DNA from: Dehalococcoidia bacterium
GTDB lineage: Bacteria > Chloroflexota > Dehalococcoidia > Lucifugimonadales > UBA3495
Direction: 5' to 3'
Length of the DNA: 64,000 bases
Assembly (NCBI GenBank): GCA_963663945.1
Contig: OY760687.1
Location: 2,708,555 to 2,772,554, forward strand
Positions 3,788 through 60,830 of the stretch are shown here, piece after piece (within the stretch, counting starts at the first letter, position 1; each line of letters opens with the position of its first letter). A model generated the notes under the pieces. The model saw only the letters and a program-made list of their open reading frames with translations, ran no database searches and was not told the origin of the DNA. The translations under genes and the position numbers were made by a program.

Positions 3788-4225
3788 CTAGAACAGGGGT
3801 ATCTTGGTGCCCTTGGCCCGGTACTGGCGGTCCTCGGAGTCTCCCGTTTCCTGGAAATCGCAGATGATCCGGTAAATGCGATCCATCTCGTGGTCAACAC
3901 TGCGCGAGAAGAAGTAGGGCGGCACCCACACGCCGCCGAAAGCCGCCACGATCTCGGGATAGTCGTCGATCACGAACTCGGGTTCCACCGGGATATTCAA
4001 CTCGGGCAGGCGCTCGTGGAAATGATGGGTGGGCTTCTCGTATACGCCGGATACGAACCGATGCAGGTCGTGCTTTTCGATGACCTCCCAGCGCTCTCCC
4101 ATCCCGGACCAGATGTAGATTTCGTGGCCATCGTCGAGGATTTTCTGGAAGGTATCCACGGTGCCGGGGCGAAGGGTGTCGTCCAGACCCAGGATCGTGT
4201 AGTCCACGTCGAAAAATATTTTCAT
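3788..4225 (-). CDS. HAD-superfamily hydrolase-like protein
   Basis: N-terminal MKIFFDVDYT matches the HAD motif I DxD. Confidence 0.65.
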   Translation of the reverse strand: MKIFFDVDYTILGLDDTLRPGTVDTFQKILDDGHEIYIWSGMGERWEVIEKHDLHRFVSGVYEKPTHHFHERLPELNIPVEPEFVIDDYPEIVAAFGGVWVPPYFFSRSVDHEMDRIYRIICDFQETGDSEDRQYRAKGTKIPLF

Positions 4226-4273: not shown

Positions 4274-4636
4274 TCAGGAACTGAGCGCTTCAGTCATGGC
4301 TTTGATGCTGGCCCCTACGATCAACCGATCGCCCAGGCGTACGATGGGGCGGCGAACCAGCCGGGGTTCATCCAGCATCAGCGCGAGCTTGCGCTCATCG
4401 GAAAGCTCTGCTGCGTTCAGGCCCATCTTTTTCAGCGATGGGCTGCGTGCGGCGAACAAACCGGTCACGCCGGGTTCTCCCGCTTCGTTGACCAGCTCGC
4501 GAAGCTCCGTTTCCGTGAACGGTTCCTTGAAATAATCGCGTTCTTCAACCGTGTAGCCGTTTTGAACGAGCAACTCTCGCACCTTGCGACAGCTGCTTCA
4601 ACGCGGCCACCAATACATCGTTGCTGTAGCGCCCAT
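4274..4636 (-). CDS. ArsC/Spx/YffB-family redox protein with in-frame UGA (candidate selenocysteine, UxxC)
   Basis: The ORF track gives only 4274..4582. The same frame upstream reads GGAGGG-N4-ATG(4636)...MGATATMYWWPR-TGA(4600-4598)-SSCRKVRELLVQNGYTVEERDYF. This is the family N-terminal strand plus CxxC/R-K motif, with TGA at the first Cys position. Confidence 0.6.
4569..4597 (-). promoter_or_regulatory. SECIS-like stem-loop immediately 3' of the in-frame UGA
   Basis: The mRNA after UGA reads AGCAGCU-G-UCGC[AAGGU]GCGA-G-AGUUGCU. It forms 11 base pairs with one G.G mismatch and has GGU in the apical loop. Confidence 0.45.
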
Positions 4637-4781
4637 TCGACCCTCCGACGAATCCGGTGAAAATGTGCTGCGGCAAGGGCTATTTTATAACGAACCGGGC
4701 TTTGACATAAGTGGGGCGCGCGTAAATTCTGTGTAAGATCCCGGACATCCTAAGCGCCACGGCACGTGCCAGTGTCCACTA

Positions 4782-11767: not shown

Positions 11768-13270
11768 TTGATCAAGGACCGACAAGTCAGACTTTTGAGG
11801 CAAAAACGTATGGAAGGAAAAACACAGGAGACGGCGGCCGCCATGTCTGGGATGAGCGTGCGCTCGGCGCGCAAATGGCAGAGTGGCCCGTTGCCGTCGG
11901 AGACCAAACCGGAGCGCTGGTGGCGCACTCGGTCCGATCCCTTCGACGGGGTGTGGGAAGAGGAGATTGAGCCACTGCTGCGGGACGACCCCAAGGGCAA
12001 GCTGAAGGCAACGACGATTATCGAATGGCTGGAGGAGCAGCATCCCGGCCAGTTCAGCACCTCCCAGCTGCGCACGCTGCAACGACGATTACAGGACTGG
12101 CGGGCGCTGAATGGTCCGGACCAGGAGGTGTACTTCCCCCAGGAGCATCCGCCGGGACGGGAGGCCCAGTTTGATTTCACCCACTGCAGCGCCCTGGGGG
12201 TGACCGTCGCCGGTGAGCCCTACCCCCACCTGCTGTTTCAGCTGATCCTCAGCCACTCGGGCTGGCGCTACGCGGAGGTCGCCGCCGGCGAGACCTTCCT
12301 GGCCCTCAAGCAGGGATTACAGAATGCGCTCTGGGCCCTGGGCGGCGTACCGGAGGTGGTGCGTTCCGACAATACCTCTGCTGCCACCCACGAGATGAAA
12401 CGCAGCCGAGGCCGGGCGCTAAACGACAATTACGCCGCCCTGCTGGACCACTACGGTGTCCGATCCACCCGCATCAATCCTGGCAAGAGCCATGAAAACG
12501 GCGTCGCCGAGCACGCCCACTACCGTTTGAAAGACGCCGTGGACCAGGCCCTCATCCTGCGCGGCAGCCGCGATTTCCACACCGCCGACGACTACGCCGG
12601 TTTCGTCCGGAAGATGGTGGAGAAGCGCAATCGCCTGGTGCGGGGGAAGCTGGAGCAGGAAATGGCTTGCCTAAGACCCCTGCCGCCAGCCCCCATGCCG
12701 GAATACGCCAACTACCAGTCCAAGGTGCGCCGGTGGAGTACCATCCAGGTGGCGGGACGCAGCTACAGCGTCCCGTCCCGGCTCATTGGCAAGGTGGTAC
12801 AGATCCGCCTCTATTCCGACCACGTGGAAGTGTACTACAAGGGCCACTTTGTGGAACGAATGGCGCGCGTGCACGGTGATGGGGAAGTAAACGTCAATTA
12901 CCGCCACGTCATCAATTCCCTGGTGCGCAAGCCCGGAGCATTCGCCCGGTACCGGTTCAGGGAGCAGCTGTTTCCCACCTTGCGCTTCCGGCTCACCTAC
13001 GACGCGCTCAGGCAGTGGCGTGGGGAGCGCGCCGACGTGGAGTACGTGCGCATCCTGCACCTGGCGGCCACCACCATGGAGGTCATGGTGGACAGCGCCC
13101 TGTCGCTGCTGCTGGAGACCGGTCAGCCCTTCGACTACGCCGAGGTGCGGGAACTGGCCGAGCCCAGGGTGCCCCAGGCTCCGGTGCTGGTCCTCTCTGG
13201 GAAGCCGGACCTGAAGATCTACGACGGTCTGCTCACGAGCAGTACGGCCATGGTGGGGGTGTGCGCATGA
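11768..13270 (+). CDS. istA: IS21-family transposase IstA
   Basis: N-terminal HTH, then a DDE region (...SDNTSAATHE...), then the long C-terminal part typical of IstA. TTG start is preceded by GGAGG. The stop overlaps the istB start. Confidence 0.9.
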   Translation: MIKDRQVRLLRQKRMEGKTQETAAAMSGMSVRSARKWQSGPLPSETKPERWWRTRSDPFDGVWEEEIEPLLRDDPKGKLKATTIIEWLEEQHPGQFSTSQLRTLQRRLQDWRALNGPDQEVYFPQEHPPGREAQFDFTHCSALGVTVAGEPYPHLLFQLILSHSGWRYAEVAAGETFLALKQGLQNALWALGGVPEVVRSDNTSAATHEMKRSRGRALNDNYAALLDHYGVRSTRINPGKSHENGVAEHAHYRLKDAVDQALILRGSRDFHTADDYAGFVRKMVEKRNRLVRGKLEQEMACLRPLPPAPMPEYANYQSKVRRWSTIQVAGRSYSVPSRLIGKVVQIRLYSDHVEVYYKGHFVERMARVHGDGEVNVNYRHVINSLVRKPGAFARYRFREQLFPTLRFRLTYDALRQWRGERADVEYVRILHLAATTMEVMVDSALSLLLETGQPFDYAEVRELAEPRVPQAPVLVLSGKPDLKIYDGLLTSSTAMVGVCA

Positions 13271-14058
13271 TGGACACCCCCACCAGCGTGATCCAGGAGC
13301 GCATCGGCGAGCTATGCCGCGAATTCAAGCTGCCCACCATGGGCGCTCAGTCGGTGGCCCGTTTCACTGAGGCTGGCCACGGCGAGGCCCTGTCCACCTT
13401 CCTGGAGGTGCTGGAGCAGGAGGCCGAGGATCGCCGCCACCGGCGCATCAACCGGCTGCGTCAGGCGTCCCGGCTGCCCTCGGGCAAGACCTGGGAGACC
13501 TTCGAGCATCACCGGATGCCCCTGACTCTTCGTCAACAGATGGACCATCTGGCCCAGGGCAGTTTCGTGGAACACGGCGTCAACGTGCTGGCCTTCGGGC
13601 TCCCCGGCACCGGCAAGACCCACGCCCTATGCGCTCTGGGCCACCGCCTGGTGGAAGCCGGACACTCCGTCCTCTTCGCTCCAGCCTACCGCCTGGTGCA
13701 GGACCTCCTCGCCGCCAAGCGCGACTTCGACCTGCCCCGACAACTGCGCAAGCTGGACAACTTCGACTTCCTCCTCCTGGACGATCTCGGCTACCTGCCC
13801 CAGGGGGCCGAGGAGTCCGAGGTCCTCTTCACCCTCATCGCCGAACGCTACGAACGCCGGTCCCTGGGCATCACGTCCAACCTGGTCTTCTCCGAGTGGG
13901 AGCGCATCTTCGCCAACCCCATGGCTACCGCCGCAGCGATTGACCGGGTGGTCCACCACTCCGTCATCCTGGAATTCGACGTCCCCAGCTACCGGACTGA
14001 CGCAGCACAGCAACGCGGCGAGACTGCTGCGGCCGAGGAGGTGAACCGGCAAAACTAA
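13267..14058 (+). CDS. istB: IS21-family helper ATPase IstB
   Basis: Walker A GLPGTGKTH, Walker B FLLLDDLGY and ITSN are IstB/DnaC-like AAA+ motifs. Confidence 0.92.
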   Translation: MMDTPTSVIQERIGELCREFKLPTMGAQSVARFTEAGHGEALSTFLEVLEQEAEDRRHRRINRLRQASRLPSGKTWETFEHHRMPLTLRQQMDHLAQGSFVEHGVNVLAFGLPGTGKTHALCALGHRLVEAGHSVLFAPAYRLVQDLLAAKRDFDLPRQLRKLDNFDFLLLDDLGYLPQGAEESEVLFTLIAERYERRSLGITSNLVFSEWERIFANPMATAAAIDRVVHHSVILEFDVPSYRTDAAQQRGETAAAEEVNRQN

Positions 14059-22380: not shown

Positions 22381-23304
22381 CTAATCGTCGGCGGCGACGG
22401 CCGGTTCGGCCAGGCGGTTGTCAACGAGTTCCGCGCTGCAGGCGGCGCTATCCAGCAATCCCCAGCGGACCATCCAGTGGTACGTGTCCTCGACGATCTC
22501 GTCGGTGTAGGGGGTGTTGTAGGAGTAACGCAGGCGAGGCAGATGGAAGTCCTCAGGCGTGATGCCGCCGTAACCCGCCGCCACCGCCGCGAACCGGGGT
22601 TCGTCAATGAGATACCGGACGTACTTGCGCTTGTCGGCGTTGATCCGGTCAACCGCCTTGGCGACGGCGCGGTTGATGGCGGAGAACGTTTCCTCGTCCA
22701 TGTTGTCGCTGGCGTTCTCGGCGCCCAGGTAGTGACCCTCGCACACCGGGCGGCAGCCCAGCTTTTCGGCCAGAGTGATCCAGGGCTCCATCAGGGCGGC
22801 GGCCGCGACCTCGCCATTCATTAGCGCCTCGAACCGGAACTGCGGGGAGCCGTAATGGACCAGTTTCATCTTGTCCTCGGGCAGATAACCCGACAGCAGC
22901 CTTATCGCGACGTAGTGGGACCCGGCGTGGAACTGCACGGCAACCGGTTTGTCGCCCAGCGTACCGGGGTAGTAGTGGGGGGAATCCGGATGCACCAGGA
23001 TGGCCTGAGTGGCGACCGCGGAACGGAGGGCGATGATGCGCGCGCCCTGCTTGCTTTCATAGGCCCGACGGACCTGACCTTCCTCTCAAGCTCGGTAGAT
23101 CGACACCTGAGCATCCTCGAAGGCCACGTGGCCGAGGATCGGGTTCACGTGTTCCGGATTCTCCGTGGGCGTCACCTTACCGCTGTTCAATGCGGTGACG
23201 AACTCCATGTCGATGCCCTCGGCTTCGAACAGGCCCTCGTCGCGGGCAACCAGCCAGGGCAGGCTGAACACCACGCCACTGATTTCGCTTACAACCTTTT
23301 TCAT
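22381..23304 (-). CDS. NMT1/THI5/SsuA-like (periplasmic-binding-fold, no signal peptide) protein with one in-frame UGA (candidate Sec, or pseudogene)
   Basis: ORFs 23086..23436 and 22381..22995 are in the same frame and separated only by TGA 23086-23088. The read-through sequence is ...FEDAQVSIYRA-U-EEGQVRRAYESKQGARIIALRSAVATQAILVHPDSPHYYPG... AGGAG precedes ATG 23304, and there is no RBS before the internal GTG. Confidence 0.55.
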
Positions 23305-45509: not shown

Positions 45510-45914
45510 ATGGAATTTGTGGCTAACCCTACCGAACACCAACTGGCCGAGATCGAGCACGGTCTGAATGAGTACAACGCCGGCGTGGTCTCCGCCCGCT
45601 CGGTTACCCCGGTGCAAGCCGTCTTCGTCGAATCGGGTTGCGTCGTGGCTGGGGTTGTCGCCGCCGCATACTGGGGAAAGCTCCATGTGAGGCTGCTGTG
45701 GGTGCATCCTGATCACCAACGCGAGGGTTTGGGCAGCCGCCTGATGCACTGGGCCGAGGAGCGTGGCCGAGAGCTGAACTGCCTTTCTGTCCTGGTCGAT
45801 ACCATGTCATTCCAGGCTCCCGAGTTTTACGCCAGGCTGGGTTACCGCCAATTTGCAGTGTCCGAAGGATATGAGGGTGGAGCCAGCCGGCATTATTTCG
45901 AAAAGAATCTGTAG
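45510..45914 (+). CDS. GNAT-family N-acetyltransferase
   Basis: LWVHPDHQREGLGSRLMHWAE is an acetyl-CoA binding motif (Q/RxxGxG). Confidence 0.7.
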   Translation: MEFVANPTEHQLAEIEHGLNEYNAGVVSARSVTPVQAVFVESGCVVAGVVAAAYWGKLHVRLLWVHPDHQREGLGSRLMHWAEERGRELNCLSVLVDTMSFQAPEFYARLGYRQFAVSEGYEGGASRHYFEKNL

Positions 45915-46076
45915 CGGCCACCTGCGAGTCGCGGTGAGATTCACCGGGTAAACCCTGCCAGCATCGCGAAACGCCCCTGCGCGAACGAGCATGGCGAAGA
46001 AACCATCCTCGCGTTTCCTGCTACAATCCGTTCCATCCCAACTATCCATGCCAACAGCCCTCACGGAGGCACTCCC

Positions 46077-47129
46077 ATGCCCGTCTTCACCCCTGAATAC
46101 CTGGAAAAGGCCGCCTACCACATCTACGTGGCCAAGGGCACGCCGCCCGAAGAGGCTGAGATCGTCGCCAGGCACCAGGTCATGGCCAACTTGGTCGGCC
46201 ACGACTCCCATGGCGTCATCCACATCCCCGAGTACTGCGAGCGCGTTGACCGCGGGCACATCGTGCCGGGCGCGCCTTTCGAGGTGCTCAGCGAGACGCC
46301 CACCACTGCGGTGGTCGACGGCCACTGGGGCTTCGGTTTCGTCGTGACCGAAAAAGCCACCCGGATGGCCATCGCCAAGGCCAAGGAGAACGGCGTCGCC
46401 GCCTTCACCATTCGCCGTCAGAGCCACATCGGGCGCCTGGGAGATTATCCGACCATCTGCGCTCAGGAGGGCATGATCGCCCTGCTCACCGCTGACTCCG
46501 GCGCGGGTCCCAAGGCCGTAGCTCCCTTCGGCGGCCGCGCCCGTCGCCTCGGCACCAACCCCATCTGCATCAGCGTGCCCAGCAACCTGCCGGGCCAGGT
46601 GCTGCTGGACATGGCGACCTCCGCCGTCGCAGCCGGCAAGATCAGCCTGGCCCGCAACCGCGGCGAGCAGGTGCCGACCGGCTGGATCGTGGACAAGGAC
46701 GGCAATCCCACCAACGACCCCAACGACTACTCCGCAGGCGGCGCAATCCTGCCCGTGGGCGCCGACCAGGGACATAAGGGATTTGGCCTCTCCTTCATGG
46801 TCGAGATGTTCTCCGGCCTGCTCACCGGCCTCGGTTTCGGCATCGACCCGCAGGCCCGCCACAACGACGGCTGCTTTCTGGCCGTGTTCGATGTCGCGAA
46901 GTTCCGCCCTCTGGAGGACTTCAAGCAGGAGATGACCGAGTTCGCGGAGTTCGTGAAGACCTCCCCGCCGGCCCCTGGTTTCAGCGAGGTCTACTACCCC
47001 GGAGAGATCGAGTACCGGACCGAACTGCAACGTCGTGAAAACGGCATTTTCATCGAGGACGAAACTTGGCGCCAGATCTCCGAGCTTATGGAAGAGGTAG
47101 GCGTCGCCGAGGCCGTCGGGCAACCCTAG
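46077..47129 (+). CDS. Ldh_2 (malate/L-lactate/ureidoglycolate dehydrogenase type 2) family oxidoreductase
   Basis: ...LVGHDSHGVIHIPEY..., ...GTNPICISVP... and GGHKGFGLS. Confidence 0.85.
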   Translation: MPVFTPEYLEKAAYHIYVAKGTPPEEAEIVARHQVMANLVGHDSHGVIHIPEYCERVDRGHIVPGAPFEVLSETPTTAVVDGHWGFGFVVTEKATRMAIAKAKENGVAAFTIRRQSHIGRLGDYPTICAQEGMIALLTADSGAGPKAVAPFGGRARRLGTNPICISVPSNLPGQVLLDMATSAVAAGKISLARNRGEQVPTGWIVDKDGNPTNDPNDYSAGGAILPVGADQGHKGFGLSFMVEMFSGLLTGLGFGIDPQARHNDGCFLAVFDVAKFRPLEDFKQEMTEFAEFVKTSPPAPGFSEVYYPGEIEYRTELQRRENGIFIEDETWRQISELMEEVGVAEAVGQP

Positions 47130-47176
47130 CCAATCGACCTGCGCGCGTGGGCGGGTGACGAGCGGGAGTAGCGCCG

Positions 47177-48019
47177 ATGCTCCTCTCCGACTTTGGCCTG
47201 CCATCGGATCTGGGAGTGTGGCTGGCCGCGCTGCTGCTGTTGATGTCTCTGCTGGTCGGCATTCTGGGTGGCCTGATCGGCTCATCCCTGGGCACAATGA
47301 GGCTTCCCGCCATGCTGATGCTGGGAGTGCCTCTACCCATGGCGGCCAGCGCCAACATTTTCGTCAGCAGCGCGGTGGGCATTGTCGGGAGCTACCGGCA
47401 CCTCCGGGACGGCCGGGTCAAGCTGCCCCTGGTTTTGATAATTGGCGTCCCAGCCTTCGTCGCCGGTTTCCTGGGCGGCTATTTCAGCAACCAGGCTCCA
47501 GCCAACCTACTGATCGGCCTGGCCGGCGGTCTAATCCTGTGGCAGGGATTTGAACTGATCTTGCTGGCCCACCGTCGCCGTCGCGGCTCACGGTCAGGAG
47601 AACCGCCAGAGGATGCGCTGGAGGGTTCTGAGGGACAGTTCACGGTGGCGCGAACCATCGGTGGAGCCGGAGCCAGTTTCGGGATCGGTCTGCTGGCCGG
47701 CGCCATTGGATTGGTGCTGAGTACCATTCGCCTGCCGCTGATCATTCGGGTCCTGCGGGTCGACCCACGGATTGCTGCCGGCAGCAATCTGTTCATTGGG
47801 ATGACCATGGGTGCGCTGGGATGGATCGGGCACATGCTGCATACCCGAACCGACGTGTCACTGCTGGTAATATTGCTCGCGCCGGCCATCGTGGGCAGCT
47901 ACCTGGGCGCCAAATTCACCGGTCGGATCAGCGTCAACCTCCTGCTGCTGCTTATGGGCATACTGCTCACCGGGTCCGGCTGCATGATGCTGTGGCGAGC
48001 CGCAACCTCGCTGCTGTAG
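47177..48019 (+). CDS. TauE/SafE (TSUP) sulfite-exporter family membrane protein, copy 1
   Basis: Polytopic membrane protein. VGILGGLIGSSLGTMRLPAM and PRIAAGSNLF repeats. Confidence 0.8.
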   Translation: MLLSDFGLPSDLGVWLAALLLLMSLLVGILGGLIGSSLGTMRLPAMLMLGVPLPMAASANIFVSSAVGIVGSYRHLRDGRVKLPLVLIIGVPAFVAGFLGGYFSNQAPANLLIGLAGGLILWQGFELILLAHRRRRGSRSGEPPEDALEGSEGQFTVARTIGGAGASFGIGLLAGAIGLVLSTIRLPLIIRVLRVDPRIAAGSNLFIGMTMGALGWIGHMLHTRTDVSLLVILLAPAIVGSYLGAKFTGRISVNLLLLLMGILLTGSGCMMLWRAATSLL

Positions 48020-58704: not shown

Positions 58705-60321
58705 CTACTGGTTGGGCGTTATGCCCAGAGCATCCCCATAAAAATGCAGCAGGCTGGTCACCGGGTTGCCCGCCATCTGCCCCAACCCGCACAGCGACGC
58801 CGCTCCAACGATTTCGGCGAGATCCTGGAGGTCCCGCACGTCCGACCCTTTTCCATCGCCGGCAGCAATGCGTACCAATGCCTCCGCGATCCGGGGAGTG
58901 CCCTCGCGGCAGGGCGTGCACTTTCCGCAGGACTCGGCAGCGTTGTACAGGCTCAACCGGGCGGCCACTTCCGCCGGAGAAGCCCGGTCGTCGAAGACGG
59001 TGATACCGCCGGCGCCCATCACCACCCCGCTGGAGTGCAGCATCCCGGGACGCAACGGCACGTCCAACTCGCTGGCCGGAAGCAGTCCGCTGGAAGGCCC
59101 GCCTACCGCGGCGAACCCTATCGCGCGCCCTTCGGGCACGCCTCCACCGACGAGATCAATGACCTGCCGAACCGTGGTGCCCATCGGCACTTCGGCCAGA
59201 CCGGGCCGCCTCACCACCCCGCTCAGCGACACCAGGCGCGTCCCTCTCGCTTCGTTGAGCCCAATCGACGCGAAACGGCGCACACCGCCCCTCAGGATCT
59301 CGGGCAGGTTGGCCAGGGTTTCCGCGTTGTTTATGACCGTCGGCTCACCGTACAGGCCAGCATCAGTGGGAAACGGCGGGCGCAGTCTTGGTTCGCGCCG
59401 GCGACCCTCCACCGTGTTGAGCAGCGTGGTTTCCTCACCGCACACGTAACCCCCGGCGCCGCGACGGATGGTTACCGCGCAGTCAAAACCGCTGCCCAGC
59501 ACGCCGTCGCCGACCAGCCCGGCGGTTCGCGCAGTTTCGAGCGCCGCCATCATGCGAGCCGCGGAAAGATCCGCCTCCGCGTTGATGTAGATAACCACAT
59601 TTCCGGCGCCCGCCGCATACGCCGCAATAACGGCGCCTTCAATGATTCGGTGCGGATTGCCCTCCATCAGATGGCGGTCCTTGAAGACGCCGGGCTCGCC
59701 CTCTTCCGCATTGACCACCAGGTGTCGCCGGGCCGCGTCGACCCGTCGCGCCGCTTGCCACTTGCGCGCCGCCGGAAAGTAGGCCCCACCGCGGCCCAGA
59801 AGACCCGCGTCCAGCGCCAGCGCGATGACCGCGTCGGGGCTCATCGCAAGGGCATCGGCCAGGCCCAGGTAACCGTTCCCCGCCAGATATCCATCGAGGG
59901 AAACCGGGTCAACACTGCCGATGCCCTCCATCAGGGCGATGTGTTGAGCCGAGAAAAACTCTTCCAACTCAGCCCGGGGGCGCATGCGCTCGGGCATCCC
60001 GCCATCCGCCGCAGCGATGATTTCTGACATATCCCCGTCGGCGGCCACCCGGTCGAAAAACCTTACCGTGCCGTCCACCCGCTCCACCACCACCTGCGTC
60101 GCGGCGAAACACGCCCCGTCGCAGCCGGCCGCCACTACGGACACGTCGTCGCGGTCCTGGAACAAGTGCGCCAGGCGTCGGTGGACGTCGGCCGCGCCGA
60201 CTGCCTGGCTGCAGTGGCCCCATTGCACGACCACCCGGGTGACGTGGGACTCAGCCGTGCCGCGTTCGGCCGCACCATCACGCAAAGTCTGCCAGGCTGG
60301 CCGGCAATCAGGCGAGGTCAT
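58705..60321 (-). CDS. NuoF-like NAD(H)-binding FMN/[4Fe-4S] flavoprotein with extra N-terminal thioredoxin-like domain
   Basis: GRGGAYFPAARKW, GEEGEPG and ESCGKCTPCREG. The ATG overlaps the upstream TGA (ATGA). Confidence 0.85.
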   Translation of the reverse strand: MTSPDCRPAWQTLRDGAAERGTAESHVTRVVVQWGHCSQAVGAADVHRRLAHLFQDRDDVSVVAAGCDGACFAATQVVVERVDGTVRFFDRVAADGDMSEIIAAADGGMPERMRPRAELEEFFSAQHIALMEGIGSVDPVSLDGYLAGNGYLGLADALAMSPDAVIALALDAGLLGRGGAYFPAARKWQAARRVDAARRHLVVNAEEGEPGVFKDRHLMEGNPHRIIEGAVIAAYAAGAGNVVIYINAEADLSAARMMAALETARTAGLVGDGVLGSGFDCAVTIRRGAGGYVCGEETTLLNTVEGRRREPRLRPPFPTDAGLYGEPTVINNAETLANLPEILRGGVRRFASIGLNEARGTRLVSLSGVVRRPGLAEVPMGTTVRQVIDLVGGGVPEGRAIGFAAVGGPSSGLLPASELDVPLRPGMLHSSGVVMGAGGITVFDDRASPAEVAARLSLYNAAESCGKCTPCREGTPRIAEALVRIAAGDGKGSDVRDLQDLAEIVGAASLCGLGQMAGNPVTSLLHFYGDALGITPNQ

Positions 60322-60830
60322 GCGTGGGGGTTCTCGATGAGGGAGGCCAGTCGCTCCGCGTCCACCCGTCCGTGCCAGCGCCCGTCGATCTGAACCGCCG
60401 GCGCCAACCCGCACACGAACGCACACGCGGTGGTGGTTACGTTGGACTCGTCAGTGTGATCGGCCCGTTGCCGAGCCGCATTCAGTAGCTCGTCGCCGCC
60501 CGACTGCCAGCAGGCCAGACCGGTACACACGACGATGCTGCGGAGCCCGGGCGGGTCGAGATGCAATTCGGAGTAGGAGGTCGCCGCTCCGTAAATCTCG
60601 GAGGCCGGCACGCGCAGATGCCAACCTACAACCTGCAACGCCCACTCCGGGAGGTGACCATGTTCGTGTTCCAGGAGGTGCAGCACGGGTAGAAGCTTGT
60701 CCCGGTTGCGGTCAGGGAATTGGTCTCTCAGCAGGCGGCGCAGGCTTGATTGGCGCTCCCGCCGTTCGGCATCCGCCGTCCCGTCGCTGGCAGGGTCGAC
60801 CTCATCGTCGCGCCGGCGGCGGCGTCCCAT
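60318..60830 (-). CDS. NuoE-like thioredoxin-fold [2Fe-2S] ferredoxin
   Basis: ...LLPVLHLLEHEHGHLP..., VCTGLAC... and ...CAFVCGLAPAVQIDG. GGAGGAG precedes ATG 60830. Confidence 0.75.
   Translation of the reverse strand: MGRRRRRDDEVDPASDGTADAERRERQSSLRRLLRDQFPDRNRDKLLPVLHLLEHEHGHLPEWALQVVGWHLRVPASEIYGAATSYSELHLDPPGLRSIVVCTGLACWQSGGDELLNAARQRADHTDESNVTTTACAFVCGLAPAVQIDGRWHGRVDAERLASLIENPHA

Follow-up and report, generated by a model that had tools for sequence, protein, structure and literature searches.

An in-frame UGA at codon 13 of a small gene on the minus strand of the window (the whole 64,000-nucleotide stretch of Dehalococcoidia DNA analysed here) is very probably decoded as selenocysteine (Sec), with a probability of about 0.85, in a 120-residue protein of the ArsC/Spx/YffB thioredoxin fold. 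The open reading frame (ORF) that starts at GTG 4582 is an annotation artefact, repeated across hundreds of database entries, and gene callers appear to drop the first 18 codons because the UGA at the active site codes for selenocysteine. This kind of selenoprotein is already known; the window protein represents a Dehalococcoidia/SAR202 subfamily that lies outside NCBIfam NF041106 and is mis-annotated throughout public databases.

The features of the corrected gene model are as follows.

4274..4636, minus strand: complete coding sequence of the proposed ArsC/Spx-family selenoprotein, 120 codons plus stop, with the translation M-GATATMYWWPR-U-SSCRKVRELL...
4641..4646, minus strand: GGAGGG, Shine-Dalgarno-like, read directly, with a 4-nt spacer to the true start codon
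4598..4600, minus strand: UGA in frame, proposed selenocysteine codon, residue 13 and first position of U-x-x-C
4580..4582, minus strand: GTG (Val19), the start taken by ORF callers; the 5' arm of the conserved hairpin opens with this codon

The original prediction had placed a frame at ATG 4636, behind GGAGGG-N4 and interrupted by TGA at 4600-4598, and direct reading of the minus strand agreed on all of these points. From ATG 4636-4634 the translation runs over 12 codons (MGATATMYWWPR) up to the TGA, past which the same frame reads SSCRKVRELLVQNGY... (SSCRKV RELLVQNGY...) as far as the stop at 4276-4274. The ORF lister did begin at GTG 4582, as had been remarked, which gave a product of 102 aa and cut off the first 18 codons. 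This start had also been said to remove the N-terminal strand and the redox motif, and the Pfam match, the alignment and the structure model all displayed that loss (strand beta1, the U/CxxC motif and the start of helix alpha1).

Homologues were gathered with one genome per species, which yielded 80 loci encoding proteins 51 to 94% identical to the window protein, all from Dehalococcoidia/Chloroflexota/SAR202 MAGs except for one probably mis-binned contig. TGA stood at codon 13 in every sequence (81/81, i.e., the 80 loci and the window), and neither TAA, TAG nor any sense codon was found there. The terminal stop of the same gene was TGA in 49, TAG in 24 and TAA in 7 of the 80 loci. In about 80 of 82 sequences the TGA was preceded, at a distance of exactly 12 codons, by a start codon, nearly always ATG, and a loosely defined SD-like motif was found at -18 to -4 in all 80 homologous loci. 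The upstream peptide (x5-6-[MLFI]YWWPR) was kept, with Ala5, Tyr8, Trp9, Trp10, Pro11 and Arg12 conserved, and its synonymous sites varied (four codons for Ala5, two for Tyr8 and four for Pro11). Conserved residues combined with free synonymous sites indicate that the 12 upstream codons are translated in this frame.

A sole Cys form (P0083, on the 1.4-kb contig L081) harbored TGC at this codon and read FYWWPR-C-SSCRKVRELL (FYWWPRCSSCRKVRELL); this form could be an assembly error. Set against the TGA found elsewhere, its TGC makes a Sec/Cys pair. Only one nucleotide separates it from the Sec forms and it retains the hairpin described below; for both reasons it was uninformative as a control for relaxed hairpin constraint. 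Taken with the invariant TGA and the conserved upstream peptide and start, the Cys form supports the earlier proposal of a selenoprotein candidate mis-called as a truncated ORF, including the proposed check that homologues reach this N-terminus with Cys or TGA at residue 13 (TGA in 81/81, TGC in L081).

Two database searches returned about 270 and about 430 clusters, nearly all of them 90-102 aa long and covering 72-85% of the query, which indicates that the family is systematically mis-called. These orthologue fragments were labelled either 'hypothetical protein' or 'arsenate reductase-like glutaredoxin family protein'.

Downstream of the UGA, two overlapping hairpins were considered.

4564..4582, minus strand: family-wide SECIS candidate, a 7-bp stem (GUGCGAG/CUCGUUC) with the loop AGUUG (4575-4571)
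4569..4597, minus strand: originally predicted hairpin, lineage-specific, 7+4 bp with the loop AAGGU, mutually exclusive with the conserved hairpin

Scoring of both used an alignment of 30 sequences as well as the full set of 81. For the hairpin at 4582-4564, 98.6% of the cells were paired, and none of 500 shuffles matched its pairing, covariation score or double-change count. One pair was C-G in 14 and A-U in 16 sequences, a split that may partly stem from one ancestral event, and another was U-G in 10, U-A in 9 and C-G in 8. RNAalifold independently predicted 4582-4564 as the consensus structure. The two branches of the family showed 98% and 100% pairing, AGUUG was the loop in 74 of the 81 sequences, and the mean free energy over all 81 was -8.3 kcal/mol. 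The codons that make up the loop and the 3' arm were frozen (GAG in 79/79, TTG in 76/77, CTC in 80/81), with an entropy of 0.1 or less, compared with 0.86-1.0 for conserved Glu codons and 1.3-2.3 for Leu codons elsewhere in the gene. Such frozen synonymous sites in GAG-TTG-CTC point to selection at the RNA level beyond protein coding.

The bSECIS model describes a loop of 3-9 nt on a stem of 4-16 bp, with G in the first two loop positions, located 16-37 nt from the UGA and with a free energy of -7.5 kcal/mol or lower (PMC13188914). The window copy of the conserved hairpin, which contains one U-U mismatch in its stem, lies within these limits: G at loop position 2 is followed by U, the stem has 7 bp and begins 15 nt after the UGA, the loop is reached after 22 nt, and the free energy is -7.6 kcal/mol. 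We infer that 4582-4564 is the SECIS of the family and a candidate SelB-binding element. As in bacterial SECIS elements (bSECISearch consensus; E. coli fdhF type), the hairpin lies within the coding sequence just 3' of the UGA and combines a small apical loop and G-U at positions 2-3 with the 22-nt spacing and the 7-bp stem. Unlike them, at about -8 kcal/mol it is weak as well as very short, its consensus lacks a bulged U, and a stronger alternative hairpin overlaps it in half of the family.

Rfam returned neither a SECIS nor any other credible RNA family, in a gathering-threshold scan of the whole window and in a permissive scan of 4480-4680, as expected if Rfam holds no model for a short in-frame hairpin of this kind. 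A small helix that RNAalifold placed around the UGA (37-40/56-59) is not claimed, because Trp, Pro, Cys and Arg codons determine all of its bases.

In the mechanism that we propose, translation would begin at ATG 4636 behind the Shine-Dalgarno sequence GGAGGG, and a ribosome arriving at the UGA would meet SelB-GTP-Sec-tRNASec recruited by the hairpin 4582-4564, 15 nt downstream. Termination would then be replaced by Sec insertion.

The original prediction had put the SECIS-like element at 4597-4569 instead (AGCAGCU-G-UCGC[AAGGU]GCGA-G-AGUUGCU). This hairpin exists and is stable: it is contained in the minimum-free-energy fold (-33.6 kcal/mol, z = -4.1 against 200 shuffles), and by itself it reaches -17.7 kcal/mol, far below the -7.6 kcal/mol of the conserved hairpin in the window. 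Its role as the SECIS of the family did not stand, as it occurs in one branch only and lies too near the UGA, and it is the overlapping 4582-4564 that is conserved. In the 50 sequences with AGY-AGY codons for Ser14-Ser15, the window included, 97.6% of its positions were paired, and one pair exchanged between UA (18), CG (16), UG (11) and CA (5). Such conservation within the branch is little informative, because AGY allows only C-to-U changes that keep the pairing and because the 3' arm is frozen by the conserved hairpin. The hairpin is absent from the other 31 of the 81 sequences (UCN codons, 36% paired), which retain the TGA all the same, and over the whole family its pairing (65.5%) did not exceed shuffled or slid controls. 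Closing the loop with an A-U pair leaves AGG, with G at position 2, but the UGA and the loop are a mere 12-13 nt apart, under the 16-37 nt of the bSECIS model (PMC13188914). We therefore regard it as unlikely that 4597-4569 is the working SECIS here, or that both folds form a switch tuning Sec insertion in the AGY-AGY branch. With 4582-4564 retained as the SECIS, the stronger fold (-17.7 kcal/mol) may still compete with or modulate it in the branch to which the window belongs.

The protein was assigned to its family from the full-length reading. Read with Cys in place of Sec, the 120-aa protein matched Pfam ArsC (PF03960) at 8e-16 (58.6 bits against a cut-off of 24) over profile positions 1-72 of 79, whereas the 102-aa ORF scored 6.6e-11 and matched only from profile position 17. 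The Pfam comparison suggested at the outset thus reached profile position 1 only with the 18 upstream codons included. Among NCBIfam models, TIGR01617 (Spx/MgsR) ranked first with 64.5 bits, below its cut-off of 75.05; TIGR00014 (glutaredoxin-type ArsC) gave 56.2 bits, below 106, and NF041106 ('ArsC family (seleno)protein') gave 31.1 bits, below 85. The top solved structures by sequence were Spx proteins (PDB 7f75_G, 1.4e-11). In the Spx alignment, ATMYWWPR-C-SSCRKVRELL faced VTLYTSPS-C10-TSC13RKARAWL, and the CxxC redox switch of Spx was present, U13-S-S-C16-R-K aligning to C10-T-S-C13-R-K. The TGA thus falls on Cys10 of Spx, and likewise on Cys12 of ArsC, as the earlier assignment to the first active-site Cys of the ArsC/Spx motif had it.

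An AlphaFold2 model was built on the Cys-form homologue P0083 rather than on the window protein, and reached a pLDDT of 88. In this model the YWWP segment forms strand beta1, and helix alpha1 begins directly after C/U-x-x-C. Foldseek matched the model to Spx, YffB and ArsC structures with TM scores of 0.7-0.86. Both a thioredoxin-like fold (on the P0083 model) and a full-domain match to PF03960 were thus found.

Spx, from Bacillus subtilis and other Firmicutes, is a redox-sensing regulator that binds RNA polymerase. The window protein resembles it in the C-x-x-C-R-K motif, which is in register with Sec at Cys10, and in the conserved equivalents of Gly52 and Arg60, as read from the Spx alignment and from the invariant alignment columns; Spx also provided the best matches by sequence and by structure (3gfk/1z3e, TM 0.77-0.80 with the P0083 model). 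It differs from Spx in lacking the C-terminal extension (120 against 131 aa) and in coming from Chloroflexota, not Firmicutes. With E. coli R773 ArsC it shares the fold and the correspondences of Sec13 to Cys12 and of R96 to R94, whereas the other two members of the Arg triad of ArsC, Arg60 and Arg107, are unmatched in the alignment, and the window protein possesses a resolving Cys (UxxC) that ArsC lacks. A true arsenate reductase is unlikely, given the TIGR00014 score below its cut-off, the unmatched Arg60 and Arg107 and the lack of ars context.

The product of the proposed decoding would have U13-S-S-C16 capping helix 1 at its N-terminus, the place occupied by the C10-x-x-C13 switch in Spx and by Cys12 in ArsC. 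It would cycle between a selenol/thiol and an intramolecular selenenylsulfide, acting as an oxidoreductase or a redox sensor. The U-S-S-C-R-K motif and the fold point to such a selenol/thiol-selenenylsulfide couple, and from this chemistry the protein is most likely a small oxidoreductase or redox sensor. A more specific and quite improbable version would make it a selenium-containing, non-enzymatic Spx-like redox sensor acting on RNA polymerase or another partner, together with a two-hairpin RNA switch that tunes Sec insertion against termination in the branch of the window. If the Spx-like sensor reading were true, this would be the first selenium-based transcriptional redox switch.

Genes for Sec decoding were searched for in the window and around the homologues. 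ARAGORN displayed no tRNA-Sec in the 64-kb window or in the 80 flanks of 20 kb (1.6 Mb), tblastn with E. coli SelA, SelB and SelD probes gave no selA, selB or selD match in the window and the 80 loci, and NCBIfam models identified no sel gene among the ten largest plausible ORFs of the window. The lack of sel genes near the arsC-like gene says little, since linkage is not required. In the literature, BSepDB counts 46-49 selenoprotein genes in Dehalococcoidia MAGs, which ranks them with the bacteria richest in selenoproteins (PMC13326102), and a study of 37 sponge-symbiont bins from Aplysina aerophoba reports SelA together with SelB in most of them (PMC5649159). This published work and a second Sec/Cys-pair gene in the window (see below) support Sec decoding in the clade.

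Another way to recode the UGA would be insertion of Cys by a SelB-like route, or near-cognate read-through with Trp, Cys or Arg. Such recoding would suit the negative searches for Sec machinery in the window and flanks and the Cys codon that can stand in for the TGA (L081). Against it, bacterial selenoproteins are classically recognised by a TGA that aligns to a redox-active Cys and is followed by a conserved hairpin (PMC9312934), ArsC-like proteins with UxxC already figure in selenoprotein catalogues, a wealth of selenoproteins is documented for the clade, and simple read-through would need no conserved hairpin with a frozen loop sequence. We consider non-Sec recoding very improbable and infer that the residue inserted at the UGA is Sec.

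Genome-wide reassignment of UGA was rejected, because TGA, TAG and TAA all serve as ordinary stops in the window. Fifteen window ORFs, most of them identified by family or homologue matches, end in TGA (6), TAG (6) or TAA (3), and TGA terminates mutL, argH, uvrC, a quinone oxidoreductase and an IS21 transposase. The three examples first given of TGA as an ordinary stop (13268-70, 10215-17 and 7188-90) all read TGA.

That the protein starts at GTG 4582 (102 aa) behind a leader peptide or non-coding sequence, or that the gene is a pseudogene, is hardly credible: GTG is a legal start codon and every gene caller annotates the family in this way, but this start deletes beta1, the start of alpha1 and the whole U/CxxC motif, which are present in the model and in Spx and ArsC, the called starts vary among homologues (90-102 aa) with no conserved downstream start while the ATG 12 codons before the TGA is conserved, the stretch ahead of the TGA shows the evolution of a coding sequence in this frame, an ordinary stop would not be TGA in 81/81 sequences while the real stop varies, and conservation down to 51% identity excludes a pseudogene.

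Among known selenoproteins, 'ArsC-like' members entered the catalogues in 2006 (Zhang et al. 2006, PMC1794560), and the GOS selenoproteome lists 'Arsenate reductase 1 (UxxS)' and 'Arsenate reductase 2 (cd03032, UxxC)' (PMC2398784). An 'Arsenate reductase-like protein, UxxC', corresponding to NCBIfam NF041106, appears in reviews (PMC9312934, PMC13188914). The window protein has in common with ArsC-like UxxC selenoproteins the PF03960 domain, Sec in the leading position of UxxC where helix 1 begins, an origin in marine or uncultured bacteria and identification by Sec/Cys pairs. It scores 31 bits against the 85-bit cut-off of NF041106, which places it in a different subfamily that PGAP-type annotation does not rescue.

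The relevance of the result is mainly one of annotation correction, as several hundred orthologue clusters stand as 90-102-aa fragments without the active site, and a dedicated profile model would mend the annotation across SAR202/Dehalococcoidia genomes. The compact SECIS of this clade (7-bp stem, AGUUG, 22 nt) could help find further selenoproteins. The present analysis adds the corrected gene model, a SECIS identified by comparison and a second selenoprotein candidate in the window. Biologically, the protein is a further UxxC selenoprotein of thioredoxin fold from a lineage reported to be selenoprotein-rich, and will not surprise specialists.

The neighbourhood of the gene is conserved, the next gene being the following.

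3788..4225, minus strand: conserved downstream gene of 145 aa with a HAD-like DVDYT motif, followed by mutL

In 79 of 80 loci the 145-aa gene comes immediately after the arsC-like gene, on the same strand and with 77-99% amino-acid identity, and mutL comes next, likewise in 79/80; the 145-aa gene is also downstream of the Cys form in L081. It had no match in Pfam, NCBIfam or PDB. The selenoprotein gene and the 145-aa gene are probably co-transcribed. An ars operon context was absent, the neighbours being the HAD-like gene, mutL and rpmB.

A further candidate was found elsewhere in the window.

22381..23304, minus strand: NitT/TauT substrate-binding/NMT1-like protein, selenoprotein candidate with an in-frame TGA at 23088-23086

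The second in-frame TGA that had been pointed out at 23086 is indeed there, at 23088-23086 of the minus strand. A codon-usage scan for TGA-bridged ORFs recovered only this candidate, its sensitivity being too low to detect even the arsC-like gene with its 12-codon upstream part; the other matches of the scan were rejected as adjacent same-frame genes or low-scoring stretches. At the position of the TGA, all nine full-length homologues aligned (46-54% identical) have the Cys of YRACEWGQ, and the close homologues are all called truncated. Both the TGA and the 72-codon N-terminal part of the gene are kept in four independent contigs (L082, L083, L085 and L087). A 5-bp hairpin with the loop CGUCG lies 10 nt after this UGA.

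On sequence grounds, the gene at 22381-23304 was a candidate for a second selenoprotein in the window. It is given here with the other features considered:

22381-23304, minus strand: candidate second selenoprotein, NitT/TauT substrate-binding/NMT1-like, with an in-frame TGA at 23088-23086
4601-4603, minus strand: Arg12 codon of the arsC-like gene, directly 5' of its proposed Sec UGA
3788-4225, minus strand: protein of 145 aa bearing a HAD-like DVDYT motif, directly 3' of the arsC-like gene
11768-13270, plus strand: IS21-family transposase (NCBIfam NF033546, 4.5e-61)
58705-60426, minus strand: N-terminally extended NuoF-like protein of 573 aa
60964-63036, plus strand: 690-aa protein, with Pfam Abhydrolase_10 as its sole match

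The full candidate gene spanned 307 codons, and the called ORF was a 204-aa fragment of it. In the alignment, the in-frame TGA corresponded to the Cys of YRACEWGQ, a residue that was Cys in all nine full-length homologues aligned. Four independent contigs (L082, L083, L085 and L087) kept the TGA as well as the N-terminal part of 72 codons, and a hairpin (AGGUC[CGUCG]GGCCU) began 10 nt 3' of the UGA. To our knowledge, no Sec form of the NitT/TauT substrate-binding/NMT1-like family is known.

The homologue on L087 also displayed a further in-frame TAG 17 codons past the TGA (KQGA*VIGL, around 1500-1520 of the contig). This copy may be a pseudogene, the TAG may stem from faulty assembly, or it may mark one more recoding event.

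In the arsC-like gene, Arg12 was encoded by CGT in 80 of 81 orthologues, while four to six synonymous codons were used at its other conserved Arg positions; this synonymous constraint is possibly a codon-context effect on recoding. In 79 of 80 loci, the arsC-like gene was directly followed by the gene for the 145-aa protein, and in 79 of 80 mutL came next after that gene. The 145-aa protein had no Pfam, NCBIfam or PDB match, shared 77-99% identity across loci and was more conserved than both neighbours.

Elsewhere in the window, an ORF at 13015-14058 overlapped or adjoined the IS21-family transposase and may encode its IstB-like partner. The 496-aa ORF at 45807-47297 was without any family match.
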